Virus record (IMG/VR): IMGVR_UViG_2548876940_000013
Location: 1-24,224 of that record
Source of the DNA: a virus
Taxonomy: Duplodnaviria; Heunggongvirae; Uroviricota; Caudoviricetes
Length of the DNA stretch: 24,224 bases
Direction: 5' to 3' (one strand)
In this document: piece after piece, positions 3,271-20,405 of the stretch
Position numbering within the stretch: position 1 is the first letter of the stretch
Layout: each line of letters begins with the position of its first letter
Notes under the pieces: model-generated
Database searches by the model: none
What the model was told of the DNA's origin: nothing
What the model saw: only the letters and a program-made list of their open reading frames with translations
Position numbers and translations under genes: made by a program

Positions 3271-4293
3271 ATGGCAAAATTAAATGCTAGCGAAAGACTC
3301 GTTACTCATCATAGTCTGACCATTGACACAAAGTTTAGAACCAAGGCAACACAAGAGGTAAAAGCCCAGTGTATATGTCCTGTTCCGGAAATGTACATGC
3401 TTGCCCCATTGATTGTTAAACAAAAGGGACTCGTTCATTCATATGATTCTGGGAATATTGTAGTTACTCTCCAAGATGTACAACTTTATCCTTTACTTCC
3501 AGATAACTCACCCACGCATATTGTCCTTCTTATTAATAGTGTTGATAAAAATGGAAGTACTACCGTTGTAAAAAATATAAATACTAATGAACGCGTTGAA
3601 ATCCAACCAAAATATGAACAAGGTGAAGGCTATGAAGTTTCTACCTATGTTGTCATATCATTAAATGGAAATAAAAGAACCTATGATATGATTTGTACAT
3701 CTACCCCAGGTGTATCTACGGCCCGGTTAAATAGTTTTTTAGACAAAATTCTCTTTGAAGTGGCGAAAGACAATGAAGACTTATTTACCGCAAAACATCC
3801 AACTAACGTTATTTCTGCAACATCAAAAAAAGAAGTAAAAATACGATACAAACCAATATTTGAATTTACAGGAATGTTAGACAAGGAGCTTTTTAATAAA
3901 ATAAGCCAAAAAGGATTATCAGATGTCATATTAGTCAAGGATCAATTCGGAACAATTAATGCTCCTGATGTTAATTCACCTTACATTCCGACTGAAAGTA
4001 CATTAAAATTACTTCCAAATCATGGTGACAATGTTATTGGATGGATTAAAAATGTAGCATCTCATTTCAATAAAAAAATGAATGGTGGTTATGATAAATT
4101 AAAGGTTAAATTCCAAGATCCTGAAACAAATAAACCAAGGCAGGTTGATTTCAAAACCTCAAACATCAATCTTAATAATTTAGAAAAAACATTTATTAAG
4201 AAAAGCATTATCGATAACTTTAATTCGCGCCTGAAGGATTCATATGTTAAAATTGAACTAGAGTTTGTTGTGAAAATGATAGATTTGATGTGA
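3271..4293 (+). CDS. Hypothetical 340-aa soluble protein, first gene of the Q-lysis cargo cassette (candidate defence/abortive-infection component)
   Basis: Clean 340-aa ORF with ATG start, visibly AT-rich, antisense to the late operon. Lys/Asn-rich; no motif I recognise. Confidence 0.6.
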   Translation: MAKLNASERLVTHHSLTIDTKFRTKATQEVKAQCICPVPEMYMLAPLIVKQKGLVHSYDSGNIVVTLQDVQLYPLLPDNSPTHIVLLINSVDKNGSTTVVKNINTNERVEIQPKYEQGEGYEVSTYVVISLNGNKRTYDMICTSTPGVSTARLNSFLDKILFEVAKDNEDLFTAKHPTNVISATSKKEVKIRYKPIFEFTGMLDKELFNKISQKGLSDVILVKDQFGTINAPDVNSPYIPTESTLKLLPNHGDNVIGWIKNVASHFNKKMNGGYDKLKVKFQDPETNKPRQVDFKTSNINLNNLEKTFIKKSIIDNFNSRLKDSYVKIELEFVVKMIDLM

Positions 4294-4300
4294 GGTTATT

Positions 4301-4885
4301 ATGCCAATACTTTCAGTTTTCTCTCATCTAGGCAAGCCGTTTGGATATCTTTTTATTAAAGGTATTAGCGGCAAAGCTGCATATGATTGGGTAGCACCAA
4401 TTCTACTTACTTCTATCACAGCAGTACTTTTCATTCTATTAAAAATCCCTGTCAAAGATTTATTTGATGACAATGGTTTCATTAAATCAATCGTTTCATT
4501 TATCTCTAACCTACCAGGGTTTTATATTGCCGCTCTGGCCGCCATAGCAACTTTCAATAGAGCTGAGATTGATTTACCATTGATTAGCAATGAAAGAAAT
4601 GCCTCTATTGAAATAAAAGTAACAAAAGAAAATGGAAAAGTAGTAAATTCAGAGGAGGTTCTGACCAGACGATTATTTCTTTGCATGCTATTCTCTTTTT
4701 TAACAGCATTAAGCATTGTTATAATAATACTTAATGCTATATTTTCACCATTAATCAATGTCTATCAAAACAGTATTGTTTTAATGGTTTATACTGTTGT
4801 ATTTACTTTCCTAGTTTGGCAACTCTTAGTATCAACTTTCTTTGGATTATATTATCTCGGAAACAGAATTCATATGAATTATTAA
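4301..4885 (+). CDS. Hypothetical 194-aa integral membrane protein (about four TM helices), second gene of the cargo cassette
   Basis: ATG 7 nt after the stop of the upstream gene, with the SD gagg overlapping that stop (operon). Four hydrophobic segments, roughly aa 30-50, 60-85, 125-148 and 159-186. Confidence 0.6.
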   Translation: MPILSVFSHLGKPFGYLFIKGISGKAAYDWVAPILLTSITAVLFILLKIPVKDLFDDNGFIKSIVSFISNLPGFYIAALAAIATFNRAEIDLPLISNERNASIEIKVTKENGKVVNSEEVLTRRLFLCMLFSFLTALSIVIIILNAIFSPLINVYQNSIVLMVYTVVFTFLVWQLLVSTFFGLYYLGNRIHMNY

Positions 4886-4906
4886 GCCCTACAGGGGCTT
4901 AATAAT
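4879..4906. other. Perfect 11-bp stem hairpin spanning the convergent stop codons of the cargo cassette and Q
   Basis: ttattaagccc-taca-gggcttaataa. The stops of the 4301-4885 gene (+) and of Q (-) lie 3 nt apart inside this structure. No U-tract on either side. Confidence 0.4.
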
Positions 4907-5239
4907 CAACAAAATACCTTCAATCACTCCTATTGCTGCTTGAAGTTGTTTTCTGATTGACCCGTCAGAGCATTTCCGTTTCTTTGCTATTGAACGGAGT
5001 GAAATACCGATAACAAAGTGAGCAATGATCAGTTCATATTCTTCTGGCTTATATTTCCGCAATCGCGCAACACAGCTGTCAATCATGATTCCTTCATCAT
5101 CATCGCATTGTTGGCGTATTTTCTTTCCATGAGGTAGTAAACCTTTAAACCCTGCAGCAACAGGCTGCCAGTCCACACCACTGTTATCTGCTGCAGCCCA
5201 TGCTCCCCAGCGGTCCAATACTTCATACATATCACGCAT
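4889..5239 (-). CDS. Late-gene antitermination protein Q (QuuD-like)
   Basis: Motifs VLDRWGAWAA, GFKGL and a Cys/His-rich centre, as recalled for DLP12-type Q. Track start is TTG at 5254; the ATG at 5239 has the SD ggagaagg. Located directly upstream of the lysis cassette. Confidence 0.7.
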   Translation of the reverse strand: MRDMYEVLDRWGAWAAADNSGVDWQPVAAGFKGLLPHGKKIRQQCDDDEGIMIDSCVARLRKYKPEEYELIIAHFVIGISLRSIAKKRKCSDGSIRKQLQAAIGVIEGILLIIKPL

Positions 5240-5256
5240 CAACCTTCTCCACAAAA

Positions 5257-6252
5257 TCAGGCCAGCACGCCAATTGTCAGCGCACGATCGATAAAACGAA
5301 ATATCAGCTCCAGCTGGGAGCCATACTTCTCTTCAAATGCCACGGTATCCGCATGCAGCTCGTCGTGATGCTTTCTGCACAAAGGCAACACAAAGAGATC
5401 ATGCGCTTTTGTACCCATTCCACCCTGACCGTGGCCTATCAGGTGGTGGGGATCATCAGCGGGCTTTCCACAACATGCACACGGCTGTGTCTTAACCCAG
5501 CGCGTGTACTTTTCATTAACCCAGCGGCGACGTTTTGGGCGTAACATAAAAGACTCCGGCGACTCCGGATCCACTTTCAGCGCCAGCACCTTTTTCGCCT
5601 TATCCTGGATGATGCTGGTGGCAGGAACCGAAGGCACAAGGTCACTTTCCCGGGAGACAGACGGCACAACAGGCTTCGGTAATCTCAGTGCCTTACGGGC
5701 TGCACTTTCCGGTAAGGCATCCGCCAGGTCATTACGAATCAGCCACCAGCACAGTTCCGGCATTGTCACAACGTGACTATCATCAAAACCGAGATCCCGA
5801 CGCACAACAGACAACACCCAGCGGGCACAGTTATCCGTTGCCATTGATTCCAGCCGTTCCGTGAACTGATCGCGCAGCTGGTTATCGCAGTGCCAGCACA
5901 GACGGATTGCGCCCGGAGCGTGTCGCATTGTGGTCATGTTCTCGCTGTGCCAGTCGGAATGAGGCCACTGACAGCCTTTTTCACGAAGTAACCAGCTTTC
6001 AAGACATTCCACGCCACCAGCACGACGGATCACTGCCTCATTGCGGAACACGGCCCGAACGGCAGGATCATCCGCCAGCGGTTGTGATGCCGCCGGAACG
6101 GCACCGCTGGCGAAAGATGAATAACGTTCCGGCTCAGGCTCCAGCAGGACACGCCCCTGCATAAACAAGGGCATCAGCTCTGAACCTGGCCTGAACAATA
6201 CGATCCCCATACGCGGGGCAATTTCAGGGGTCAGTAGTGCTCTCACGGTCAC
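5257..6252 (-). CDS. DUF968/YdfU-like phage protein
   Basis: 331-aa ORF with a C-terminal Cys/His-rich HNH-like motif CACCGKPADDPHHLIGHGQGGMGTKAHDLFVLPLCRKHHDELH. nin-region position. Start ambiguous (GTG 6252 or ATG 6210). Confidence 0.55.
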   Translation of the reverse strand: MTVRALLTPEIAPRMGIVLFRPGSELMPLFMQGRVLLEPEPERYSSFASGAVPAASQPLADDPAVRAVFRNEAVIRRAGGVECLESWLLREKGCQWPHSDWHSENMTTMRHAPGAIRLCWHCDNQLRDQFTERLESMATDNCARWVLSVVRRDLGFDDSHVVTMPELCWWLIRNDLADALPESAARKALRLPKPVVPSVSRESDLVPSVPATSIIQDKAKKVLALKVDPESPESFMLRPKRRRWVNEKYTRWVKTQPCACCGKPADDPHHLIGHGQGGMGTKAHDLFVLPLCRKHHDELHADTVAFEEKYGSQLELIFRFIDRALTIGVLA

Positions 6253-6253
6253 C

Positions 6254-7063
6254 TCAATGAACGGTATCGAGCAGCTTTAACAGCTCTGGGAATCGGGATT
6301 CGAAGAAATGCGGCTGCGTCTCGCGCGGATTTGCGGGACTGGTGATGTTCTTGCCGAACATGCAGCCTTTCGCTGTCAGCGACCAGAATTTTTTGATGTT
6401 GTTAATCGCGGTACGGCTGTATCGTTCGCGCTGCTCGACGATCCCCAGTTTCACCATCTGGTGATATGCCTGATTAGCTGTCAGGCGGATACCATACTGC
6501 TTCAGCAGTGCACTCAGTGACAGCGTGGGGCGGCTTGAGCCATCAGGCGCGTCAGCAGGAGCATCAATGGCATAGCGCGGTGCCAGATTCGGTAAGCCAA
6601 CAGCCTCCTGGAGTTTCTGACAGGCACCAAGCACTGAAGAGTTAGACAGGTTTAACTCCCGGCGCATAAAGTCCAGCAGGATCACGCCAGCCTGCATCTT
6701 GTCAGCAGCCTGTCCGGATAATTTTTCCGGTGCGCTGGTTACCATATCGAAAGTACGGATCACCTTCAGATGGAATGACGGGCTGATCCACATTGCATAG
6801 GCATACACCAGTTCCTTGCAGACATACGTTCCCCGTTCATTTCCCCCATGAATCACACTCACCGGGTCAACACCCAAATTCTGGGTGTTGGTCAATTCAT
6901 GAACAAGCTCAACAGTTTGTTGGCTGGAAAGAAACTTTCCCGGCTCCTTGGTTCTGGCATTTGCACCAGATGCTACTGCTGCGCGATGCAGATCGTTCAG
7001 GCTGTAACGCCCATAAGCATCACGACGAACTTCAATACCATCAATGACCATCAGATTATTCAT
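6254..7063 (-). CDS. KilA-N domain-like protein (antirepressor-like)
   Basis: N-terminal MVIDGIEVRRDAYGRYSLNDLHRAA resembles KilA-N as recalled. Strong SD aagaggag. Family call is tentative. Confidence 0.45.
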   Translation of the reverse strand: MNNLMVIDGIEVRRDAYGRYSLNDLHRAAVASGANARTKEPGKFLSSQQTVELVHELTNTQNLGVDPVSVIHGGNERGTYVCKELVYAYAMWISPSFHLKVIRTFDMVTSAPEKLSGQAADKMQAGVILLDFMRRELNLSNSSVLGACQKLQEAVGLPNLAPRYAIDAPADAPDGSSRPTLSLSALLKQYGIRLTANQAYHQMVKLGIVEQRERYSRTAINNIKKFWSLTAKGCMFGKNITSPANPRETQPHFFESRFPELLKLLDTVH

Positions 7064-7082: not shown

Positions 7083-7472
7083 TCAGGCGGCTGCACCCGC
7101 CGTTTTCTCGTACTTACTGATAGTGATTTCGACCTTCCCTTCCGGGATAACCGGTCCCCACTCCACTAGCATTCTTTTCACCTGACTGTCGTCTTCCCAC
7201 ACACCCGCGTGGGTCATGGCGTCAAACAGCGCCTTGTTATAGTTGTCCAGATCGCGGATCCGGTTATCCGGAGGAAACAACACGATCTCCACTGAAGCAG
7301 GTGCCGACGTTGGTTTCGGCAGACGACGTAACTGCTCAACTATTGCTGCGCACGCCGCGCTCTGGAATTTTCGCCCCGCCTCGCTTATCAGGCTCTTACC
7401 TGCAAACGCCCCTTTGTTGGGGTGTCGCCAGTACGTGTTCACGCTGGGCGGAAAAGGCAGAATCAGCTTCAT
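7083..7472 (-). CDS. rusA: Holliday-junction resolvase RusA
   Basis: 129 aa with LPFPPSVNTYWRH and the acidic catalytic region RDLDNYNKALFDAMTHAGVWEDD, as in RusA. Typical nin-region position. Confidence 0.85.
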   Translation of the reverse strand: MKLILPFPPSVNTYWRHPNKGAFAGKSLISEAGRKFQSAACAAIVEQLRRLPKPTSAPASVEIVLFPPDNRIRDLDNYNKALFDAMTHAGVWEDDSQVKRMLVEWGPVIPEGKVEITISKYEKTAGAAA

Positions 7473-7795
7473 ACTTTCATGCCCCTCTTATGTAACCAGT
7501 GGGTTGCACGCAGCCTGGCGTTTTCCTCACCGGCAAGCAGTGCGCGGATAATCCCGACCGCCTCGCTGTCGTCGTCCTTGACCGCGGTATGAAGCGTTAT
7601 CCCCCGGGCCACACCACGCTTTATCGTGATGACGCCTTTTTTCTCCAGTGCGCGAAGATGCTCCACCGCTGCATTCACCGAACGGTATCCCAGCATGGTT
7701 GCCACCTCCTGATTGGTTGGCGGGAAGCCACGTTCTTTCTGATAAGAAATCAGCATATCCAGCACCTGCTGCTGGCATTGAGTTAACGTCGTCAT
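7469..7795 (-). CDS. LexA-like DNA-binding protein (N-terminal winged-helix domain only, no S24 peptidase domain)
   Basis: QQQVLDMLISYQKERGFPPTNQEVATMLGYRSVNAAVEHLRALEKKGVI parallels the LexA N-terminal domain, including the recognition-helix SxNAAxEHL pattern; the protein ends about 40 aa later. ATG at 7795 overlaps the upstream stop (TAATG). Confidence 0.7.
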   Translation of the reverse strand: MTTLTQCQQQVLDMLISYQKERGFPPTNQEVATMLGYRSVNAAVEHLRALEKKGVITIKRGVARGITLHTAVKDDDSEAVGIIRALLAGEENARLRATHWLHKRGMKV

Positions 7796-8283
7796 TACGC
7801 CCCCACGTAATTCCCTGACAGATACCACTCATCACTCGATACAGCGCGCTTGCTGCTTTTCCGTAAACACTGCTCACGACGCGCCAGAAAATTGTTTCGT
7901 TCTGGCTGGGAGTGGCTTTCACGGAATGCCGCCATCCACACCGTTGCAGCACGACGGTATAAGCCCCTTGACTCCAGTTCTTCAGCCTGGCGGGTCAGGC
8001 ACAAAATCACCCGGGGATCGTTAGTGCCGACATAGAAATTGCGCACAGGTCTGGTTTCACGAACTGGTTGTGGTTCCGGCTCCTGCGCTCTCTCAGTCAG
8101 GCGCGGGAAATGTCTGCGTGTATCTCCTTCACAACGGTGAGCCACACGCCCACTCTGACGTAACTTGCTTGCTGACTGCAGAACGCGCTGCCGTGAGTAA
8201 CCTGCAAAAGCATCCGCAATGTCTCCGGAAGTACACCCCGGATGGGCTTCAATGAATTTCTGAACTTCATTCAAAAGACTCAT
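7795..8283 (-). CDS. Hypothetical regulatory protein with a PerC-like C-terminal motif
   Basis: C-terminal GLYRRAATVWMAAF resembles the PerC-family signature as recalled. ATG at 8283 with SD aggggg. Confidence 0.4.
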   Translation of the reverse strand: MSLLNEVQKFIEAHPGCTSGDIADAFAGYSRQRVLQSASKLRQSGRVAHRCEGDTRRHFPRLTERAQEPEPQPVRETRPVRNFYVGTNDPRVILCLTRQAEELESRGLYRRAATVWMAAFRESHSQPERNNFLARREQCLRKSSKRAVSSDEWYLSGNYVGA

Positions 8284-8285
8284 AA

Positions 8286-9227
8286 TCACCCCCTGAATCC
8301 TGCCGGGATCTGGCTGTAGTCCACGTTGTCGTAACTGGCTTTGAAGTACGGGTCTTCACGTTTTTCTGTGTGCGTGCTGACGGACGGCGATAAGCGCAGG
8401 GAAAGCTCATCCCATTTTTCCCGCAACTTCGACGGGCTGAGCACGTTACGGCACCAGAACGGATCGCGGCTGACGCGGCTGTACATCTCGCAGATTTGTT
8501 TGTGAGTACGACCATCCTGCACACACATCAGGCGAATTTCGTTTGCCCAGGCTGTCCAGTTAGGTTCTTTGGGACGAACCACCTCGCCGTCACATTCGGC
8601 GGCCTGCTCGTACAGGGCGATGATTTTTTTCCAGAGCCACTGTGCGCAGGTCAAATCATCCTGCGTTCCCCACTGGCGCTTTTTAGGGCTGAATACAACC
8701 GCATCAGGATGGCGAGTTAAAAAATCCTGTTCATCCATCTGCGTGTCCGGTTGCGAAGCGTCCGGACGAGAAGGTTTTTTATCTGATGGATCATGTTTTG
8801 ATTTTACTGACGGATCCCCGCCAGATTCTGACGGGTGAAAACCCGCTTTTTTGCCAGATTTCGACGCATCAAATTTTGACGGGTCAGATTTTGATGCGTC
8901 AGATTTTGACGGGTCAGAATCTGACAGTTGAGAAAATGCCGCTGCCTGAAGCTTCGCAACGTTAAGCTGATAAACATTCGACGCATTGCGGTTACCCTGG
9001 CGACGCGCCTTACGCGTTAACCAGCCTTCTGCTTCCAGCCGTGCGATAGCCGTTCTGACGGTACTCATCCCCGCGCCAATCTGACGGGCAATGGTTTCAA
9101 TTGATGGCCAGCACACACCTTCGTCATTACTGAAATCAGCCAGGCGGGCCATAATTGCCACGCTGGATAACTTCATGCCTGATGCAGCGCAACCATCCCA
9201 TACATAGCCGGTTAATTTAGTGCTCAT
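8286..9227 (-). CDS. Phage replication initiation protein (winged-helix N-terminus, iteron-encoded linker, DnaT-like C-terminus)
   Basis: N-terminal HTH (WPSIETIARQIGAGMSTVRTAIARLEAEGWL). Central low-complexity repeat SDPSKSDASKSDPSKFDASK encoded by the iterons. C-terminal end SQIPAGFRG resembles the E. coli DnaT C-terminus as recalled. Confidence 0.7.
   Translation of the reverse strand: MSTKLTGYVWDGCAASGMKLSSVAIMARLADFSNDEGVCWPSIETIARQIGAGMSTVRTAIARLEAEGWLTRKARRQGNRNASNVYQLNVAKLQAAAFSQLSDSDPSKSDASKSDPSKFDASKSGKKAGFHPSESGGDPSVKSKHDPSDKKPSRPDASQPDTQMDEQDFLTRHPDAVVFSPKKRQWGTQDDLTCAQWLWKKIIALYEQAAECDGEVVRPKEPNWTAWANEIRLMCVQDGRTHKQICEMYSRVSRDPFWCRNVLSPSKLREKWDELSLRLSPSVSTHTEKREDPYFKASYDNVDYSQIPAGFRG
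8800..8927. repeat. Origin-of-replication iteron array inside the replication gene
   Basis: Seven copies of a roughly 15-bp unit (consensus agattttgacgggtc), four contiguous at 8871-8927 and three more at 8800-8870, with an adjacent AT-rich tract at 8771-8800. Confidence 0.7.
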
Positions 9228-9575: not shown

Positions 9576-10162
9576 GCGTTAGTTTCTCCACAACCAGAAG
9601 CAATCGACGCCACGACGCCCGGAGCTGCACACTCGCGGGCGTCATTACTTTCTGAAATGCAAAAAATTTTGTAGACAAGTGCTGCATGCTCCTGCAGCTT
9701 CGAAATTGAGAGATACAGCTCGTCGTTAATTGCTGTCTTCTCATGCGGTTCCACTACGCCGTCTTCGATTGCTGAACGAATCTGTTTTGAATAACTGCCG
9801 ATCTGTTCAATGACTTCCAGCAGACGCTGGTTAATATCGGCGTTGTCCACATCCTCGACGTCAGGAAGAGACACAAAGACGCCATTTGCAGACTGCGCCA
9901 CAGCATCAGCAATGAAGTGAGTGCCACCAGCACGCTGTAAAACCATTGCCCATCCCAGCGGGAAAATCTGATCGCCATCTGCACGAAGGCGGTTGAATAA
10001 AGCGTTCTCTGTTACATCCAGCCAGTCAGCGGCTTCAGCGTAACCCCCCGGCAACGCCGCGATAGTTTTTCTGACAGCTTTCACGTACCACTCAGGCTGT
10101 TTTTCTATTTTCCAGTGATGCTTACCCACGGCTATCTCCTTAAAACTGTGGTTACTTTTCAT
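9572..10162 (-). CDS. Hypothetical early regulatory protein (CII/YdaT-position)
   Basis: Occupies the slot after the cro-like gene. The track start (TTG 10234) overlaps the cro-like gene, so the ATG at 10162 is preferred. No motif recognised. Confidence 0.4.
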
Positions 10163-10400
10163 CTGATGAATCTTTAATCTTTTGAAAAATATCTGGACGT
10201 AATTTTTCTTTTGATATGCCAGTGGTCTTTTCAATGAATATCGAGAGCTTTGCAGGGGGACGCTTTTCTCTGTTCAACCAGTTCCAGACATGTTGTTGCT
10301 TTACTAAATGACCGCTGCTGGCTGTGAGCTTCCGAGCCAATTCTGATTGACCACCAGCCAGAGCGATTGCCTCCGATAAGGCTAATTGCTCAGGTGTCAT
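10152..10400 (-). CDS. Cro/YdaS-like HTH regulator
   Basis: 82 aa with the HTH ALAGGQSELARKLTASSGHLVKQQHVWNW. Strong SD aaggagaaa. Divergent from the CI-like repressor across an operator-containing spacer. Confidence 0.7.
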   Translation of the reverse strand: MTPEQLALSEAIALAGGQSELARKLTASSGHLVKQQHVWNWLNREKRPPAKLSIFIEKTTGISKEKLRPDIFQKIKDSSDEK

Positions 10401-10535: not shown

Positions 10536-11222
10536 GTGAAAACACTGGCAGAACGATTAAAGATAGGTAGAGAGAAAGCTGGCATGAGCCAAGCTCAACT
10601 AGCTGAAAAAATTGGACTTTCACAACAATCTGTAGCCAAAATAGAGAATGGCGAAACTCTACAACCGCGCAAAATTAAAGAAATTGCAAAAGTTTTAGGT
10701 GTATCACAAAAGTGGTTACAACTTGGTATTGAAGACAACGCATCCATACCTGATCTTGTTGTAAAAGAAGCAGAAAGCACCGCATTAGACCCCGATATTT
10801 TCGTAAACATTCCTGTTTTAGATGTCGAGTTATCGGCAGGTAACGGATGTCTGGCTGAAATAGTTGAATCAGCTATTGACTGGTTTCCGTTAAGAAGAGC
10901 AGATTTGAGAAAATCTGGCGTATGTGCATCTAATGCCAAGATCGTACAAATATGGGGGAACAGTTTATTACCGGTTCTCAATAATGGAGATCTTGTTGCC
11001 GTTGATATTTCTCAAACCGTTCCTATTCGTGATGGCGATCTTTATGCCGTACGAGATGGTGTATTGCTAAGGGTTAAAATACTTATCAACTTACCTGACG
11101 GTGGCTTGATTCTTAGAAGCTTCAACAAAGATGAGTACCCAGATGAAATACTCACCTTTGAAGATAGACGAGCCAGAATTCATGTTATAGGTAGGGTATT
11201 CTGGTCATCGCGAACTTGGTAA
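10536..11222 (+). CDS. CI-like prophage repressor (XRE-type HTH plus S24 LexA-like peptidase domain)
   Basis: N-terminal HTH (MSQAQLAEKIGLSQQSVAKIENGE) and C-terminal S24 fold with Ser (GNSLLPV) and Lys (LRVKIL) in the expected places. GTG start with SD agagaggg. Confidence 0.85.
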   Translation: MKTLAERLKIGREKAGMSQAQLAEKIGLSQQSVAKIENGETLQPRKIKEIAKVLGVSQKWLQLGIEDNASIPDLVVKEAESTALDPDIFVNIPVLDVELSAGNGCLAEIVESAIDWFPLRRADLRKSGVCASNAKIVQIWGNSLLPVLNNGDLVAVDISQTVPIRDGDLYAVRDGVLLRVKILINLPDGGLILRSFNKDEYPDEILTFEDRRARIHVIGRVFWSSRTW

Positions 11223-12095
11223 TGCATCGAAAAGCATTTCTTCAGAAATAATTTTAAGTTTTGCACCATTATCATCCCTATAAGATATAGCCTTTTCGAT
11301 CTTCCTTCCGTGACTAGAGAATTTCCAATCACGGGAGGAAAGCGTCCCAATTACTAAAAAATCCAACTTTTGAGTAATTCCACTACTGATGTTCCCACCA
11401 GCATTTTTAATCAAATTTTCAACTACGGCTCTCTTTCCTGCAACAAAAGTGCCTGTAAGACAATAGGTTTTACCCTCTAACTCTATCGAAGCCCCTACAT
11501 CAATAGGCAGCCTGGTCGCCAAACCATCCACCACCCCACTTTCCAAGTCACATCCTGTGAAGTCTACTAATGCCTTATGTAGAGTTAAACTCTCATCTTC
11601 AGTAATAACACCATCTTTAAGAATTTCCTTTACAAGTGCATAAAGTTTTTTTCCTGGGTAGTTGTTCTTCAAAGCTCCATTTTGCTCAAGCCACCAATTA
11701 AGATATCTTATTTCTTCTTGAGTTAAGTTCCGATCAGCAATTAATCCTTTACATAGTCCATTAAGTAAATGGACATCTACATCCTTGGAGTAAAAATCAA
11801 TTTCAGGGATATCAAGAATTTCCCTCTGTATTTGGAGAAGACTATTTTTAAGGTCATCACGTTCTTCTGATGTGATTATTCCATCCACAAGAATATCCGA
11901 CACCCGTGCAGATAGACTTTTTATAACTCCATTATTGATAATCTGCTTTGCTTCAAGTAACCATGTATCTAAGTAAAGAACCTCCTCTTCACGGACAACT
12001 CCATCTGCAATGATTCCATCAATGATGCTAATCAAGTTAGCAAATAACTTGTCCCGGTTCTGTGTGTAATTAAAAGCGTAAAGCGCGTCTTCCAT
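11205..12095 (-). CDS. TerB-like-repeat / BRCT-domain protein in the immunity region (candidate exclusion/defence factor)
   Basis: C-terminal BRCT signature GKTYCLTGTFVAGKRAVVENLIKNAGGNISSGITQKLDFLVIGT...KLKIISEEMLFDAL, as in the LigA BRCT. N-terminus has four repeats of about 38 aa with the motif [IL]xDG[IV][IV]TxEE. ATG at 12095 with SD aaggagg; track start is GTG 12125. Confidence 0.7.
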   Translation of the reverse strand: MEDALYAFNYTQNRDKLFANLISIIDGIIADGVVREEEVLYLDTWLLEAKQIINNGVIKSLSARVSDILVDGIITSEERDDLKNSLLQIQREILDIPEIDFYSKDVDVHLLNGLCKGLIADRNLTQEEIRYLNWWLEQNGALKNNYPGKKLYALVKEILKDGVITEDESLTLHKALVDFTGCDLESGVVDGLATRLPIDVGASIELEGKTYCLTGTFVAGKRAVVENLIKNAGGNISSGITQKLDFLVIGTLSSRDWKFSSHGRKIEKAISYRDDNGAKLKIISEEMLFDALPSSR

Positions 12096-12300
12096 ACAAC
12101 CTCCTTTTTTTGATAATCCTTGCACTCCTTGGCTACTCGTTCAAACCACATAAAGTTGTTGACAACATTCAAAACCACAACTAAATTACAACTTAAAGGT
12201 GTTAAGACAACGAACAGGCAGGACGCCCACGAAGTAGCCGCTTGGGGCATATGAAGTCCAGGATGATTCGTTGAGTCATGTTGTGCCACTAGGCACTCAT
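12096..12300. promoter_or_regulatory. OL-like operator/promoter region (candidate pL driving + strand early-left genes, with a divergent promoter for the BRCT gene)
   Basis: Contains the near-palindrome aaagttgttgacaac and the motif acaacttaaaggtgtt, which match the units in the cro/cI spacer. Confidence 0.4.
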
Positions 12301-16744: not shown

Positions 16745-19213
16745 CTATGATTTAGGTAAGTACTGTTTTAGTTTGTCAATAAATTGATCGATCTCTGCAG
16801 AAGTGAGTTCTGTTAGCTCACGTTTGCATATACCTACTGCCTCATCAAATCTCGAAGTTAAAGTTAACCAAATAGCTTTAAACCTTATAAAACTGCCGTA
16901 TGTTTGAGATTTAGGTGAATCAGTTTTTTCAAGAATTCCAATAGCATACTCTAATTTATCAATTCTTTTATATTGTATAGCTAGGTCACAGAGCGTTAAA
17001 ACAGGATATTTTATATCAGGAAAGTCCATGATCCCATTTTCAATTAGGGTAAATGATTCATCAACTTTATTATCAAACCTAGCAAGTGCCTTAGCTTTGG
17101 CGGAGCAATAAATTTCCTGTGCGCGTTGGGCTTGATTCGATTTTAGTCGTTCAAGTATATCCTCTACTAAACCTGGTTCAATATGTGAATCATCCTTGTA
17201 AAAAAGGCAGTTTAAATAATTATTAGCATTTATTGGATTATTTTTCTGCCTTTCATAAACTTCCTTCGCCAATCCCAAAGCAAGTTCGTGCTCATCATTC
17301 TGTAAATACAACAATACCAGTTCACTTTTTGAACGGTGGTCATTAGGTCTTTGCCTTAAAACTCGCTTATAGCTCTCAATTGCCCGAGAACGTTGGCGTG
17401 TTATTCTAAAATAAAAACCATGCAGGAATGAACTTTCTGGTTCAGGAACATCTCGTACCGCATTAAAAAACTCTCGATCATGCAGTCTTGCTAGAGACTG
17501 GCATTTCATAAATAATATGTGTTCTATAACATTTGAATGCATATATTGAGCATTTGAAAGAATCTGATCAGCTAATCTCACAGCTTCTTTATAGTTCGCA
17601 GATCCACCTTTTTCGTATAATGATCTTATTGTTTTTACAAAATATGAAGGAACTAACACTCGACTATCTATATCTTTACCGGTTTTTATAGCCTCCTGAA
17701 TGGAGAAAATATATTCCGAAATATCCCTATTGTTGTCTGTATATTCTTCAATGAACTTCTTAATATGCTTACTCAAAACATCATCATATTCACTGGTGGT
17801 TCCAAACTTACTTCTTGATATGTAATCCTGTATTACTTGGTTTACCCTGATATAATCATTATTCACACCTAATTGATCACATACAGACATATTGATGAAG
17901 TTTTGCGTAATTGGATAAAACTCCACTTCATCTACTAATGAAAAAAGGAACTCATAGCTAATGAATTCAAATTTTGAAAGGAAATATAAAAAATCTAACT
18001 TACGCTGATCATGGGAAAAACTTTCAACTATTACTTTTGCCTTATCATCAGCATATTCTCTTATTAAATGTGAATCTTTTTTCACTGAATAAAGGTTCGT
18101 ATCCGATATACTATCCACGGCAAAAAGAACTTGCTCTGGATAACCCGAAAGTAGGTCTGAGAAAAAACGCAGATCTTCAGGGCATAAATCTAAACCTTTA
18201 TATGTTGCATATCTTTTCAAAAGCCCTCGTCTTTCTTGAGTATTCAATTCAGGAATTTCTTCAAAGTAATACTCTGGATTTCTATAAGAAAATGTTTTAT
18301 TACCTCTAAACTTAGATGCTATACAGAAAGTCAAGTGACCATAATGTTTAATATGATCTGTAATCCTTACAAACCAACTTACAATTGTACTATCAGGTTG
18401 AACTATAGCTCCTTTATCTTCAATTAGGATTCGTTCTTTTTCTTCTATAATTCCTTCTATAAGCTTTACCGCAATATTAACTTTATCACTTATTGAAGTG
18501 GTCATTAAATCATGAATTTTACCAATATCGCATAAGCCAAGATCATTTATTTTTAAGATAAAGTCTTCTATACTATCTGAAGACTCGATTTGTATTATAG
18601 GAAATTCATAAGACTCTCTTATAGCATTAGATTTTATAAGAGCGTTCTTCATAAAAGATTTACGGCCAATTGAATCCAAACCTGAAGCAATAAAAACTAC
18701 AGGAGGAGATTTATCAAAGTCATCAAAACGTTGCTCAACGTTAGTCGTTTTCTCATTTCTACCCACAAATATTTTTTGTCTTTCTTTCAATGCAGGATGG
18801 GTTTTAAATGCAATCTCTCGTAGTCGAGCATTAATTTTTCTAATTGCAACGTTAGGCTTCCGAATTGGCTGAATATTAAAACCTTCCTTCATCCAGGATG
18901 GGACCCTTGGATCTGTAAAAGTTATTTTGTCATCTATTATAATTGGATAAATACGTTGCAGATGACCATCCTCTACTTTTTTCTTTGCTAAGCGCATTTC
19001 CTCTTTAACCCAATCAGACTCTAATGCAGAATCAGAAAGAAATAAAACAAAAAGAGATGTATCATCTAGCCCCTTTAATATTTCCTCTGATGGGGACATG
19101 CCTTTTTCAAAAGTCTGCTCATCGAAAATTCTAGTTTCTTTGCGAAGCCCTGAAGCAACAACTCGTACATAGTCCTTGTCTTTTGAACTATGTGAAAGAA
19201 AACATTTTATCAT
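16745..19213 (-). CDS. TIR-domain protein with a central NTPase-like region and C-terminal TPR-like repeats (STAND/NLR-like antiviral candidate)
   Basis: N-terminal TIR motifs (CFLSHSSKDKDYV; LFVLFLSDSALESDWVKEE with a candidate catalytic Glu). Middle region with a degenerate P-loop (FIASGLDSIGRKS) and a Walker-B-like ERILIED about 75 aa later. C-terminal roughly 300 aa of helical TPR-like repeats. Visibly AT-rich; sits between int and the icd-derived arm. Confidence 0.8.
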   Translation of the reverse strand: MIKCFLSHSSKDKDYVRVVASGLRKETRIFDEQTFEKGMSPSEEILKGLDDTSLFVLFLSDSALESDWVKEEMRLAKKKVEDGHLQRIYPIIIDDKITFTDPRVPSWMKEGFNIQPIRKPNVAIRKINARLREIAFKTHPALKERQKIFVGRNEKTTNVEQRFDDFDKSPPVVFIASGLDSIGRKSFMKNALIKSNAIRESYEFPIIQIESSDSIEDFILKINDLGLCDIGKIHDLMTTSISDKVNIAVKLIEGIIEEKERILIEDKGAIVQPDSTIVSWFVRITDHIKHYGHLTFCIASKFRGNKTFSYRNPEYYFEEIPELNTQERRGLLKRYATYKGLDLCPEDLRFFSDLLSGYPEQVLFAVDSISDTNLYSVKKDSHLIREYADDKAKVIVESFSHDQRKLDFLYFLSKFEFISYEFLFSLVDEVEFYPITQNFINMSVCDQLGVNNDYIRVNQVIQDYISRSKFGTTSEYDDVLSKHIKKFIEEYTDNNRDISEYIFSIQEAIKTGKDIDSRVLVPSYFVKTIRSLYEKGGSANYKEAVRLADQILSNAQYMHSNVIEHILFMKCQSLARLHDREFFNAVRDVPEPESSFLHGFYFRITRQRSRAIESYKRVLRQRPNDHRSKSELVLLYLQNDEHELALGLAKEVYERQKNNPINANNYLNCLFYKDDSHIEPGLVEDILERLKSNQAQRAQEIYCSAKAKALARFDNKVDESFTLIENGIMDFPDIKYPVLTLCDLAIQYKRIDKLEYAIGILEKTDSPKSQTYGSFIRFKAIWLTLTSRFDEAVGICKRELTELTSAEIDQFIDKLKQYLPKS

Positions 19214-19796: not shown

Positions 19797-19958
19797 TTAC
19801 ATATTTTCGATGATCGCGTCACCAAACTCTGAACATTTCAGCAGCTTAGCGCCTTCCATCAGACGTTCGAAGTCATAGGTTACGGTCTTCGCGTTGATTG
19901 CGCCTTCCATACCTTTAACAATCAGGTCTGCGGCTTCAGTCCAGCCCATATGGCGCAG
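19797..19958 (-). pseudogene. icd: Orphan 3-prime fragment of isocitrate dehydrogenase (icd): phage-borne attachment-site arm, as in phage 21/e14
   Basis: - strand translation [53 protein letters not shown] matches the Icd C-terminus as recalled. An in-frame stop lies immediately upstream (19980-19982) and no upstream frame encodes Icd. Confidence 0.8.
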
Positions 19959-19979
19959 CAGCATTAATATATGCCTCAT

Positions 19980-20405
19980 TCATAAAATGTAAAAGAGCAA
20001 GCTCGTACCAGTAGGGGGAAAATTCATTGACATGTCCTGTCAATACGTACAGAGCCCTGCCATGCTTGCCAGCACGTAACAATTCCGCCCCCAGTAACCA
20101 GCGTGTCCCCTGATTATTCTCAGGGTTATATGTTAGTATTTTATCAATGAGTATAACGGCATCCTGATGACGCTGTAAATGAACATTCGCCAGAATTGCA
20201 GCATAAAGAGCGCAAATGCATATGCCAGATGAGCGTGAATATCAATGATGTCAGGAGCATGTCTGGCAAGACGCCTGAGTTTGTTGACGTAATTTGTTTC
20301 GTTTATTTCATCACTATCGTATGCGTCAAGAGTTTTTTCAAATTCATCCCGAAATGGGCCAAGCCTGGTTTCAGGAAATAAGAAATACCCCTGGTTATTG
20401 TTCAC
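19980..20405 (-). pseudogene. Decayed ORF of unknown origin
   Basis: A 90-aa ORF (GTG start) and the following segments read protein-like in one - strand frame, interrupted by three stops before running into the icd fragment. Confidence 0.3.

Follow-up and report, generated by a model that had tools for sequence, protein, structure and literature searches.

A stand-alone LexA-type DNA-binding protein encoded beside the replication genes of a lambdoid prophage

The LexA-like gene and its product

We have analysed a 24,224-nucleotide stretch of viral DNA (positions 1 to 24,224 of IMG/VR record IMGVR_UViG_2548876940_000013, Caudoviricetes), referred to below as the window, which includes 16.5 kb of an SfII/SfV/e14-like mosaic lambdoid prophage. 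The subject of this analysis is a minus-strand gene whose product resembles the domain with which the SOS repressor LexA binds DNA. An earlier note, made from the letters of the DNA alone, had described this product as a 108-aa LexA winged helix that ends before any S24 peptidase domain, and had suggested that it might act as a LexA mimic insensitive to RecA. The gene and the parts of its product are as follows.

7469..7795 (stop codon included), minus strand: LexA-like gene for a 108-aa stand-alone DNA-binding protein (ORF list, Pfam, PHROG)
7589..7795, minus strand: winged helix-turn-helix, residues 1-69 (AlphaFold2: helices 6-22, 28-35 and 40-52; strands 56-58 and 66-68)
7640..7681, minus strand: recognition helix, residues 39-52, SVNAAVEHLRALEK, where LexA has SPNAAEEHLKALAR (translation and alignments)
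7487..7576, minus strand: two-helix hairpin, residues 74-103 (AlphaFold2: helices 74-88 and 93-103)

The open reading frame (ORF) in the program-made list, 7469..7828 on the minus strand, opens with GTG and would encode 119 aa; translation from an in-frame ATG at 7793-7795 yields a protein of 108 aa, MTTLTQCQQQ...KRGMKV. This ATG is taken as the right start because the shorter protein is collinear with LexA at its N-terminus (MTTLTQCQQQV versus MKALTARQQEV in the alignment), because the ATG overlaps the stop codon of the PerC/YfdN-like gene by 1 nt (TAATG), and because the annotated homologues in phages SfII, SfV and mEp460 begin at the equivalent ATG.

Residues 1-65 match the whole of Pfam PF01726, LexA_DNA_bind (model positions 1-65 of 65), with an expected value (E) of 2.9e-19, which bears out the earlier description of a LexA N-terminal winged helix. 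The similarity to E. coli LexA itself is far beyond chance (E between 1e-15 and 1e-21). PHROG 362, whose annotation is a generic "transcriptional repressor", covers the entire protein, that is the winged helix and the C-terminal hairpin together (E 1.8e-59, residues 1-108 on profile positions 1-106 of 106). The match to NCBIfam TIGR00498, lexA, extends over model positions 1-91 of 203 only, and its score of 70.5 bits lies below the curated cut-off of 110.95 bits. No Pfam match to Peptidase_S24 was found in the 108-aa protein. LexA proper carries an S24 peptidase and dimerisation domain with the catalytic residues Ser119 and Lys156; the phage-encoded chain stops at residue 108, so the truncation that had been read from the sequence is real. 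The gene at 7469-7795 is a genuine one; it encodes a winged helix of the LexA type that lacks the autocleavage domain. Since the S24 domain is missing, RecA-stimulated self-cleavage by the LexA route is impossible for its product. The protein belongs to PHROG 362 and PF01726 but is not LexA proper: the S24 domain, an equivalog-level score, a conserved cleavage site and an autoregulatory box are all absent.

Among six close alleles the ratio of nonsynonymous to synonymous substitution rates (dN/dS) is 0.06-0.32, with almost no change in the winged helix and the majority of replacements in the tail. The gene evolves under purifying selection. Membership in a known defence system was considered and rejected, PADLOC giving only a marginal match to a CARF-associated winged-helix family (E 3.6e-4).

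Predicted fold and recognition helix

The fold was predicted with AlphaFold2 from a 34-sequence family alignment (mean predicted local distance difference test, pLDDT, 83.8; predicted template-modelling score, pTM, 0.56); this model was used in place of a single-sequence model, which was discarded as too poor (pLDDT 56). The top Foldseek match in the PDB is the E. coli LexA-DNA complex 3jso, with a root-mean-square deviation (rmsd) of 0.9 A over 67-68 residues at 50-51% identity. For the hairpin Foldseek returned no PDB match. In family alignments the hairpin pattern persists to 40% identity, A97 and L101 never varying, and the protein is therefore a two-module one, more than a truncated LexA or a bare N-terminal domain. 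Residues 71-74, which link the winged helix to the hairpin, are predicted with low confidence, and the modest pTM, set against the confident local prediction, suggests that a flexible tether joins the two modules. It is possible, judging from the model, that the hairpin serves as a dimerisation or partner-binding module.

HMMER pairs the segment RALLAGE with the hinge and cleavage region GRVAAGE of LexA, which places A88-G89 opposite Ala84-Gly85. The idea that A88-G89 is a relic site for cleavage in trans by LexA, UmuD or CI was rejected: the pair is unconserved in the family, which has LLANEE, LLVGEE, IAEEP and others at this place, and it lies within a predicted helix.

The residues through which LexA contacts DNA, Ser39, Asn41, Ala42, Glu44 and Glu45, all belong to helix III (PMC3091678, a secondary source; for the detailed contact geometry we rely on this citation). 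The pattern SxNAAxEHL, to which the earlier note had drawn attention, is present within 7640-7681 as S39-V-N41-A42-A43-V-E45-H-L. In the alignments S39, N41, A42, A43, E45, H46 and L47 are the same as in E. coli LexA, as is the wing R64-G65-I66. Across 115 full-length cluster representatives the helix reads S-x-N-A-A-x-[E 57% / D 29%], S39 being invariant in the family and N41 almost so. By these residues most of the family, the subfamily in the window included, retains a reading head like that of LexA; certain clades, however, are clearly divergent.

Operon and prophage context

The genes surrounding the LexA-like gene are listed here.

10536..11222, plus strand: CI-like immunity repressor
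10152-10400, minus strand: cro-like gene, divergent from the CI-like repressor
8286-9227, minus strand: gene for an O-like HTH_36 protein (Pfam/annotation)
7795..8289, minus strand: PerC/YfdN-like gene (Pfam PerC, E 7.8e-10)
7083..7472, minus strand: RusA Holliday-junction resolvase gene (ORF list, annotation in relatives)
6254-7063, minus strand: KilA-N protein gene (Pfam, SfII annotation)
5257-6252, minus strand: DUF968/HNH gene (Pfam, SfII annotation)
4889-5254, minus strand: antiterminator Q gene (Pfam, SfII annotation)

On the minus strand the order is thus cro-like, CII/CP76-like, small ORFs, O-like, PerC/YfdN, LexA-like, RusA, KilA-N, DUF968/HNH and Q. The LexA-like gene is translationally coupled to both neighbours: besides the TAATG at its start, its stop codon overlaps the start of RusA (ATGA). 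No sigma-70-like internal promoter was matched upstream of it at 7800-8300 on the minus strand. Given this operon structure, the simplest reading is that of a delayed-early gene with transcription starting at pR, one that would be silent in the lysogen and turned on after CI cleavage or upon infection. The CI-like repressor of the same prophage combines HTH_3 with Peptidase_S24 and has the motifs SA|GNG, GNS and RVK, in agreement with its earlier description as cleavable.

The same operon order is found in SfII, SfV, mEp460, cdtI, mEp390 and metagenomic loci. It is kept even where the LexA-like proteins are only 45-58% identical: replication genes, often PerC and Dam or another methylase, are followed by the LexA-like gene and RusA, and then by KilA-N or Rha/ANT, DUF968 and Q. 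RusA lies immediately downstream of the LexA-like gene, or one small ORF away, in all sampled architectures except that of Klebsiella. In SfII (L001 8751-9404), SfV, mEp460 and most E. coli copies a 654-bp dam gene stands between the PerC/YfdN and LexA-like genes; the window has no dam at the corresponding 7795/7796 junction, where the flanking genes are joined by the 1-nt overlap.

Several other features of the prophage may be recorded. At 11205-12125 on the minus strand lies a gene for a 306-aa protein that has a BRCT domain at its C-terminus; the gene is convergent with cI and overlaps its 3' end by 18 nt, an arrangement also seen in E. coli G47-1 and at the Cronobacter locus L014. Two genes of opposite orientation, located between the lysis cassette and Q, match the candidate defence pair PDC-M53A (3271-4293, plus strand, E 2e-32) and PDC-M53B (4301-4885, plus strand, E 2e-54). 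The pair is also present in SfII as hypothetical proteins, and SfV, mEp460 and cdtI have a DNA methylase at this site. Toward the prophage end, between the integrase and an icd remnant, 16745-19213 on the minus strand encodes an 822-aa TIR-domain protein (PADLOC TIR-NLR end to end, E 4e-167; Pfam TIR_2, E 3.9e-14), which is probably an anti-phage cargo gene. The putative icd remnant is a 60-aa ORF at 19797-19979 on the minus strand, which by eye we take to resemble the C-terminal end of isocitrate dehydrogenase. It would suit an e14-type (intE) integration into icd; a perfect CTGT-N8-ACAG match stands 58 bp beyond it.

Distribution and existing annotation

The LexA-like gene is present in 2233 of 5426 complete E. 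coli genomes. The 1.4-kb segment around it recurs at 96-98% identity in 50 phage records, among them SfII, SfV (orf42), mEp460, the Stx2a, Stx2c and Stx2k phages and many E. coli phages, and a tblastn search with the protein finds 61 phage records, cdtI included. SfV orf42, SfII_44 and mEp460 gp46 are 95-97% identical to the 108-aa protein, as are the copies in cdtI and the Stx2 phages. Members that are less closely related (40-66% identity) come from prophages of Salmonella, Citrobacter, Cronobacter, Klebsiella, Enterobacter, Atlantibacter and Hafnia. In predicted viral structures, too, LexA-domain proteins that stand alone (65-150 aa) are a frequent finding. Four other proteins (P0131, P0132, P0148 and P0152; 141-352 aa) have two tandem LexA DNA-binding domains per chain and, by eye, no obvious S24 domain. 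Such single-chain pseudo-dimers would be another way to an uncleavable LexA-like binder.

Existing annotations read "LexA family transcriptional regulator", "LexA DNA binding domain protein" or "LexA-like protein". A survey of Shiga-toxin (Stx) phages lists pham 237, found in 15 phages, as a pfam01726 "LexA family transcriptional regulator" (PMC8136144); this is probably the PHROG 362-type family. A full-text literature search found catalogue entries only, and no experimental or functional study of the enterobacterial family. The gene is therefore an already annotated member of a widespread, functionally uncharacterised family, and its function name is a prediction. The age and great frequency of this annotated gene, the conserved C-terminal hairpin and the setting in a lytic delayed-early operon are points that the earlier note had missed.

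SOS boxes in the window and in related phages

Sites were scored with a position-specific scoring matrix (PSSM) derived from 19 SOS boxes of E. coli. The scores are approximate, although matches of 20-27 bits are near-consensus TACTGT-N8-ACAGTA regardless of the matrix. In shuffles of the window the maxima average 11.2 bits, with a 95th percentile of 16 bits. No SOS box above chance occurs in the window, including the 16.5 kb of prophage, the best match being 10.9 bits. A scan for CTGT-N8-ACAG, which the earlier note had proposed as a check, gave nothing of use when run on the window. One-mismatch matches number 15 against 8 expected, a count reached in 4 of 100 shuffles; the sole perfect match, at 20037-20052, scores 9.9 PSSM bits, lies outside the prophage beyond the icd remnant, and is probably due to chance. 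The LexA-like gene has neither an SOS box of its own in the window, as autoregulation would call for, nor any upstream intergenic space. Since the window holds no box, any target would have to lie in host SOS boxes or in the structural half of the prophage, outside the window. Intergenic palindromes were considered as alternative operators and set aside: only terminator-like hairpins and the cI/cro operator region were seen.

Close relatives that carry the LexA-like gene, namely SfII, SfV, mEp460 and cdtI, do have strong SOS boxes. SfII has a perfect box, TACTGTATATAAAAACAGTA, inside cI, in the part coding for the linker between HTH and S24 (12290-12309 in L001, 27.2 bits), and mEp460 has a 25.8-bit box inside its cI-like gene (31970-31989 in L017). 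These two in-gene boxes sit in two different CI-type repressor genes, and the cI of the window is without one. Tandem boxes are found at the dinI promoter of mEp460, and cdtI has a tandem pair beside orf30, a dinI-sized ORF at the position matching that of dinI in mEp460. A further box in mEp460 (22.7 bits) is at the start of a late-region N6/N4 methylase. This last site, TACTGTAAAAATAAACAGTG, is a conserved box of 21-23 bits at or just before the start of the late-region N6/N4 DNA methylase, downstream of Q, and occurs in SfV (L018, 34170), mEp460 (L017, 41021), cdtI (L019, 44083) and L020 (7739). A weaker methylase box (11.9 bits) is found in L016 at 10136.

A sister clade behind SOS-box promoters

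N-terminally extended members of 118-135 aa form a sister clade with a different gene arrangement. The sampled loci are listed here.

L010-L012: 4385-5393
L007: 3560-4408
L020: 4561-5357
L021: 4242-5405

In all four sampled architectures a canonical SOS box of 20-27 bits lies 400-750 bp upstream on the same strand, in an intergenic region that is terminator-and-promoter-like. In Klebsiella a 27.1-bit box precedes dinI by 20 bp, and dinI, the first gene of this operon, is followed by a conserved ORF of ~80 aa, the LexA-like gene, orf67 and DUF968, without RusA. The Enterobacter operon consists of a 20.1-bit box, the ~80-aa conserved ORF, the LexA-like gene, orf67, RusA, DUF968 and Q; that of a Salmonella genome, of a 26.7-bit box followed by the conserved ORF and the LexA-like gene, then RusA, DUF968 and Q. 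A metagenomic contig has tandem boxes (26.2 and 17.6 bits) and, after them, a RecA_C-like ORF, then the conserved ORF and the LexA-like gene, with orf66, RusA and DUF968 last. The uncharacterised upstream ORFs of ~80 aa share 53-56% identity between loci, and a conserved ORF of ~67 aa follows the LexA-like gene in three of the four architectures, L020 being the exception. In two of the four, the box is followed by dinI (Klebsiella) or by the RecA_C-like ORF.

In both clades the protein should appear when LexA is cleaved, sometimes together with RecA modulators, a timing in keeping with a role in shaping the SOS state or bringing it to an end.

Comparison with known proteins

E. coli LexA (PDB 1LEA, 1JHH, 3JSO) shares the winged-helix fold with the window protein, with which it is 43% identical over residues 1-90. 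The window protein differs from it in having no S24 domain, in its unrelated two-helix hairpin, and in being encoded in a phage lytic operon. The autocleavage fragment LexA(1-84) likewise consists of the LexA N-terminal domain alone. This host fragment has a VAA-COOH end and is cleared by ClpXP; the phage protein, with KRGMKV at its end and the extra hairpin, would therefore escape this route.

The only characterised analogue that we found is gp6 of GIL01, a 66-aa truncated LexA homologue which binds a non-SOS palindrome over the -35 region of the late promoter P3 and activates it (PMC6182141). The gp6 proteins of the Bacillus tectiviruses GIL01 and Bam35 resemble the window protein in being phage-encoded LexA DNA-binding domains with no autocleavage domain, and GIL01 gp6 is, as we suppose for the window gene, an early-gene product after SOS induction. 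They differ in that gp6 has no C-terminal hairpin and has an altered helix (K38), whereas the window protein keeps an E. coli-type helix and its phage has Q. BLASTP gave no alignment between gp6 and the 108-aa protein at E <= 100, and orthology was ruled out for this want of sequence similarity. The two are therefore independent truncations of different LexA lineages, gp6 being of the Bacillus type. No candidate for a gp6-like activator site over a late promoter was identified in the window.

Among mobile-element proteins, DinI and the plasmid protein PsiB are likewise proposed or known to dampen the SOS response. However, they act on RecA filaments and not on operators, and have no relation in sequence or fold to the LexA-like protein. 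With the PHROG 362 proteins and the NCBI 'LexA family transcriptional regulator' entries there is no difference in kind; they are the same family, and the window merely lacks the preceding dam. The LexA-like gene is thus another stand-alone LexA-domain phage protein and is not new. We consider the interest of the gene family moderate, because it is very common in prophages associated with pathogens and because a candidate target, the E. coli SOS box, is known.

Possible functions of the LexA-like protein

These results suggest that the protein could be an uncleavable surrogate of LexA at SOS operators. It would be expressed through the delayed-early (replication/nin-equivalent) operon after CI cleavage in the SOS response, or after infection, while host LexA is being destroyed. 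The N-terminal 69 residues, with the LexA fold and the helix-3 residues used on the CTGT half-site, would provide the reading head, and the hairpin would replace the lost dimerisation function. Activated RecA would be unable to trigger self-cleavage with S24 missing, and the lack of a VAA-COOH end may also keep the protein from clearance by ClpXP as a cleaved LexA fragment. Bound to CTGT-type SOS operators, it would re-repress LexA-controlled promoters during lytic growth. It would act on the SOS regulon of the host and, where related phages carry SOS boxes, on these as well; the effect could be a damping of SOS functions, of rival SOS-induced elements or of phage genes.

Some precedent exists in LexA itself. 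Kim and Little reportedly found in 1992 that LexA N-terminal domains on their own bind to operators in a cooperative manner, and Neher and colleagues reportedly found in 2003 that recognition of the cleaved fragment is through its new VAA C-terminus. Some SOS-box binding and repression survive in the N-terminal fragment of LexA, which ClpXP must remove for SOS induction (PMC10584840). Since the fragment retains repression, the same would be expected of an N-terminal domain that is stable and has its own means of dimerisation. We regard the surrogate as plausible but unproven, with chances somewhat below even.

A number of observations weigh against a LexA surrogate. The window has no SOS box above chance for it to bind. 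The recognition helix, in which loss of key residues would by the earlier note refute LexA mimicry, retains S39, N41, A42 and E45 but differs by P40V and E44V from the gammaproteobacterial LexA motif SPNAAEEHL, and R28 is replaced by N. Positions 40, 44 and 45 differ between subfamilies; at position 45 the 115 cluster representatives have, apart from Glu (57%) and Asp (29%), L, T, A, I or G. Three of the four box-driven sister proteins have non-canonical helices (SQNTVFIHL, SPYAAYEHL and SSNAVLLHL), so LexA specificity is not kept throughout the family, and by their sequences these three are unlikely to bind the box of their own operon. Finally, the only characterised truncated phage LexA that we found, GIL01 gp6, has changed specificity and activates transcription.

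Most of these observations would suit a phage-specific transcription factor of drifted specificity, with an operator of its own, that activates or represses phage genes, for example those of the nin, Q and late region or of the lysis-lysogeny decision. Gp6, which binds GaCACAnnTGTGaC to activate P3, would be its model, and the generic repressor label of PHROG 362, the variable helix positions and the absence of an SOS box are all in keeping with it. The precedent is one of analogy only, however, since gp6 has no detectable similarity to the 108-aa protein and depends on a different residue, K38, while the window subfamily retains S39, N41, A42 and E45. Moreover, no candidate palindromic operator stood out in the intergenic regions of the window, and late transcription is already served by the Q antiterminator. 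We hold this explanation possible but on the doubtful side. The gene's position, wedged by overlapping stop and start codons between replication genes (mostly with Dam or another methylase) and RusA, could alternatively mark the protein as a DNA-binding accessory of replication or recombination, working with RusA, Dam or the O-like initiator and not as a transcription factor. The winged helix does show weak similarities to PHROG 678 'replication initiation O-like' (E 0.0086) and Pfam DnaD_N (E 0.16), but both are far under the family thresholds; gene order in the nin region is modular and does not imply physical partnership, the Klebsiella clade has the gene without RusA, and the retained base-reading residues favour sequence-specific binding. 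Such an accessory role seems unlikely.

A separate, confidently predicted hairpin on a flexible linker (pTM 0.56, pLDDT 84), conserved to 40% identity, also invites the thought that the protein acts mainly through protein-protein contacts, the hairpin binding RecA, ClpX, RNA polymerase or a repressor and the winged helix only tethering or localising it. The proximity of sister genes to the RecA-related dinI and to the RecA_C-like ORF would fit this. Any partner is purely hypothetical, though, helical hairpins are common as dimerisation devices, and the changes among close alleles fall mostly in the tail rather than in the winged helix, all of which makes this role quite improbable in our judgement. 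Finally, the pairing of RALLAGE with GRVAAGE is consistent with a LexA cut just past the hinge, and the gene might then be a decaying, functionless remnant of a full-length LexA or CI-type repressor. This is contradicted by selection (dN/dS 0.06-0.32) and by conservation: length and frame are maintained in thousands of genomes, the gene is translationally coupled within its operon, and the helical pattern is conserved where the Ala-Gly pair is not. We give a decaying remnant hardly any credence.

Implications for prophage biology

Extended to the family as a whole, the LexA surrogate would mean that about 40% of complete E. coli genomes carry, in a prophage, an SOS-switched and uncleavable LexA stand-in that recloses operators while RecA is still active. 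The switching would come about through CI cleavage or, in the sister clades, through an SOS-box promoter of their own near dinI. This broader proposal is tentative and, on present evidence, rather doubtful. Should the protein instead serve an operator of its own, the family would represent a second independently evolved phage regulator with a LexA head, after GIL01 gp6. Binding to SOS boxes, if it occurs, would make this very common prophage gene an inbuilt SOS off-switch beyond the reach of RecA, and phages would control the duration of the host SOS response, mutagenesis and the induction of rival SOS-dependent elements. The carriers of the gene include Shiga-toxin phages, cytolethal-distending-toxin phages and Shigella serotype-converting phages. 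Such a switch would therefore bear on the length of SOS mutagenesis, on the dynamics of Stx phage induction, and on competition among co-resident prophages, with colicins, and with SOS-regulated defence or toxin genes.

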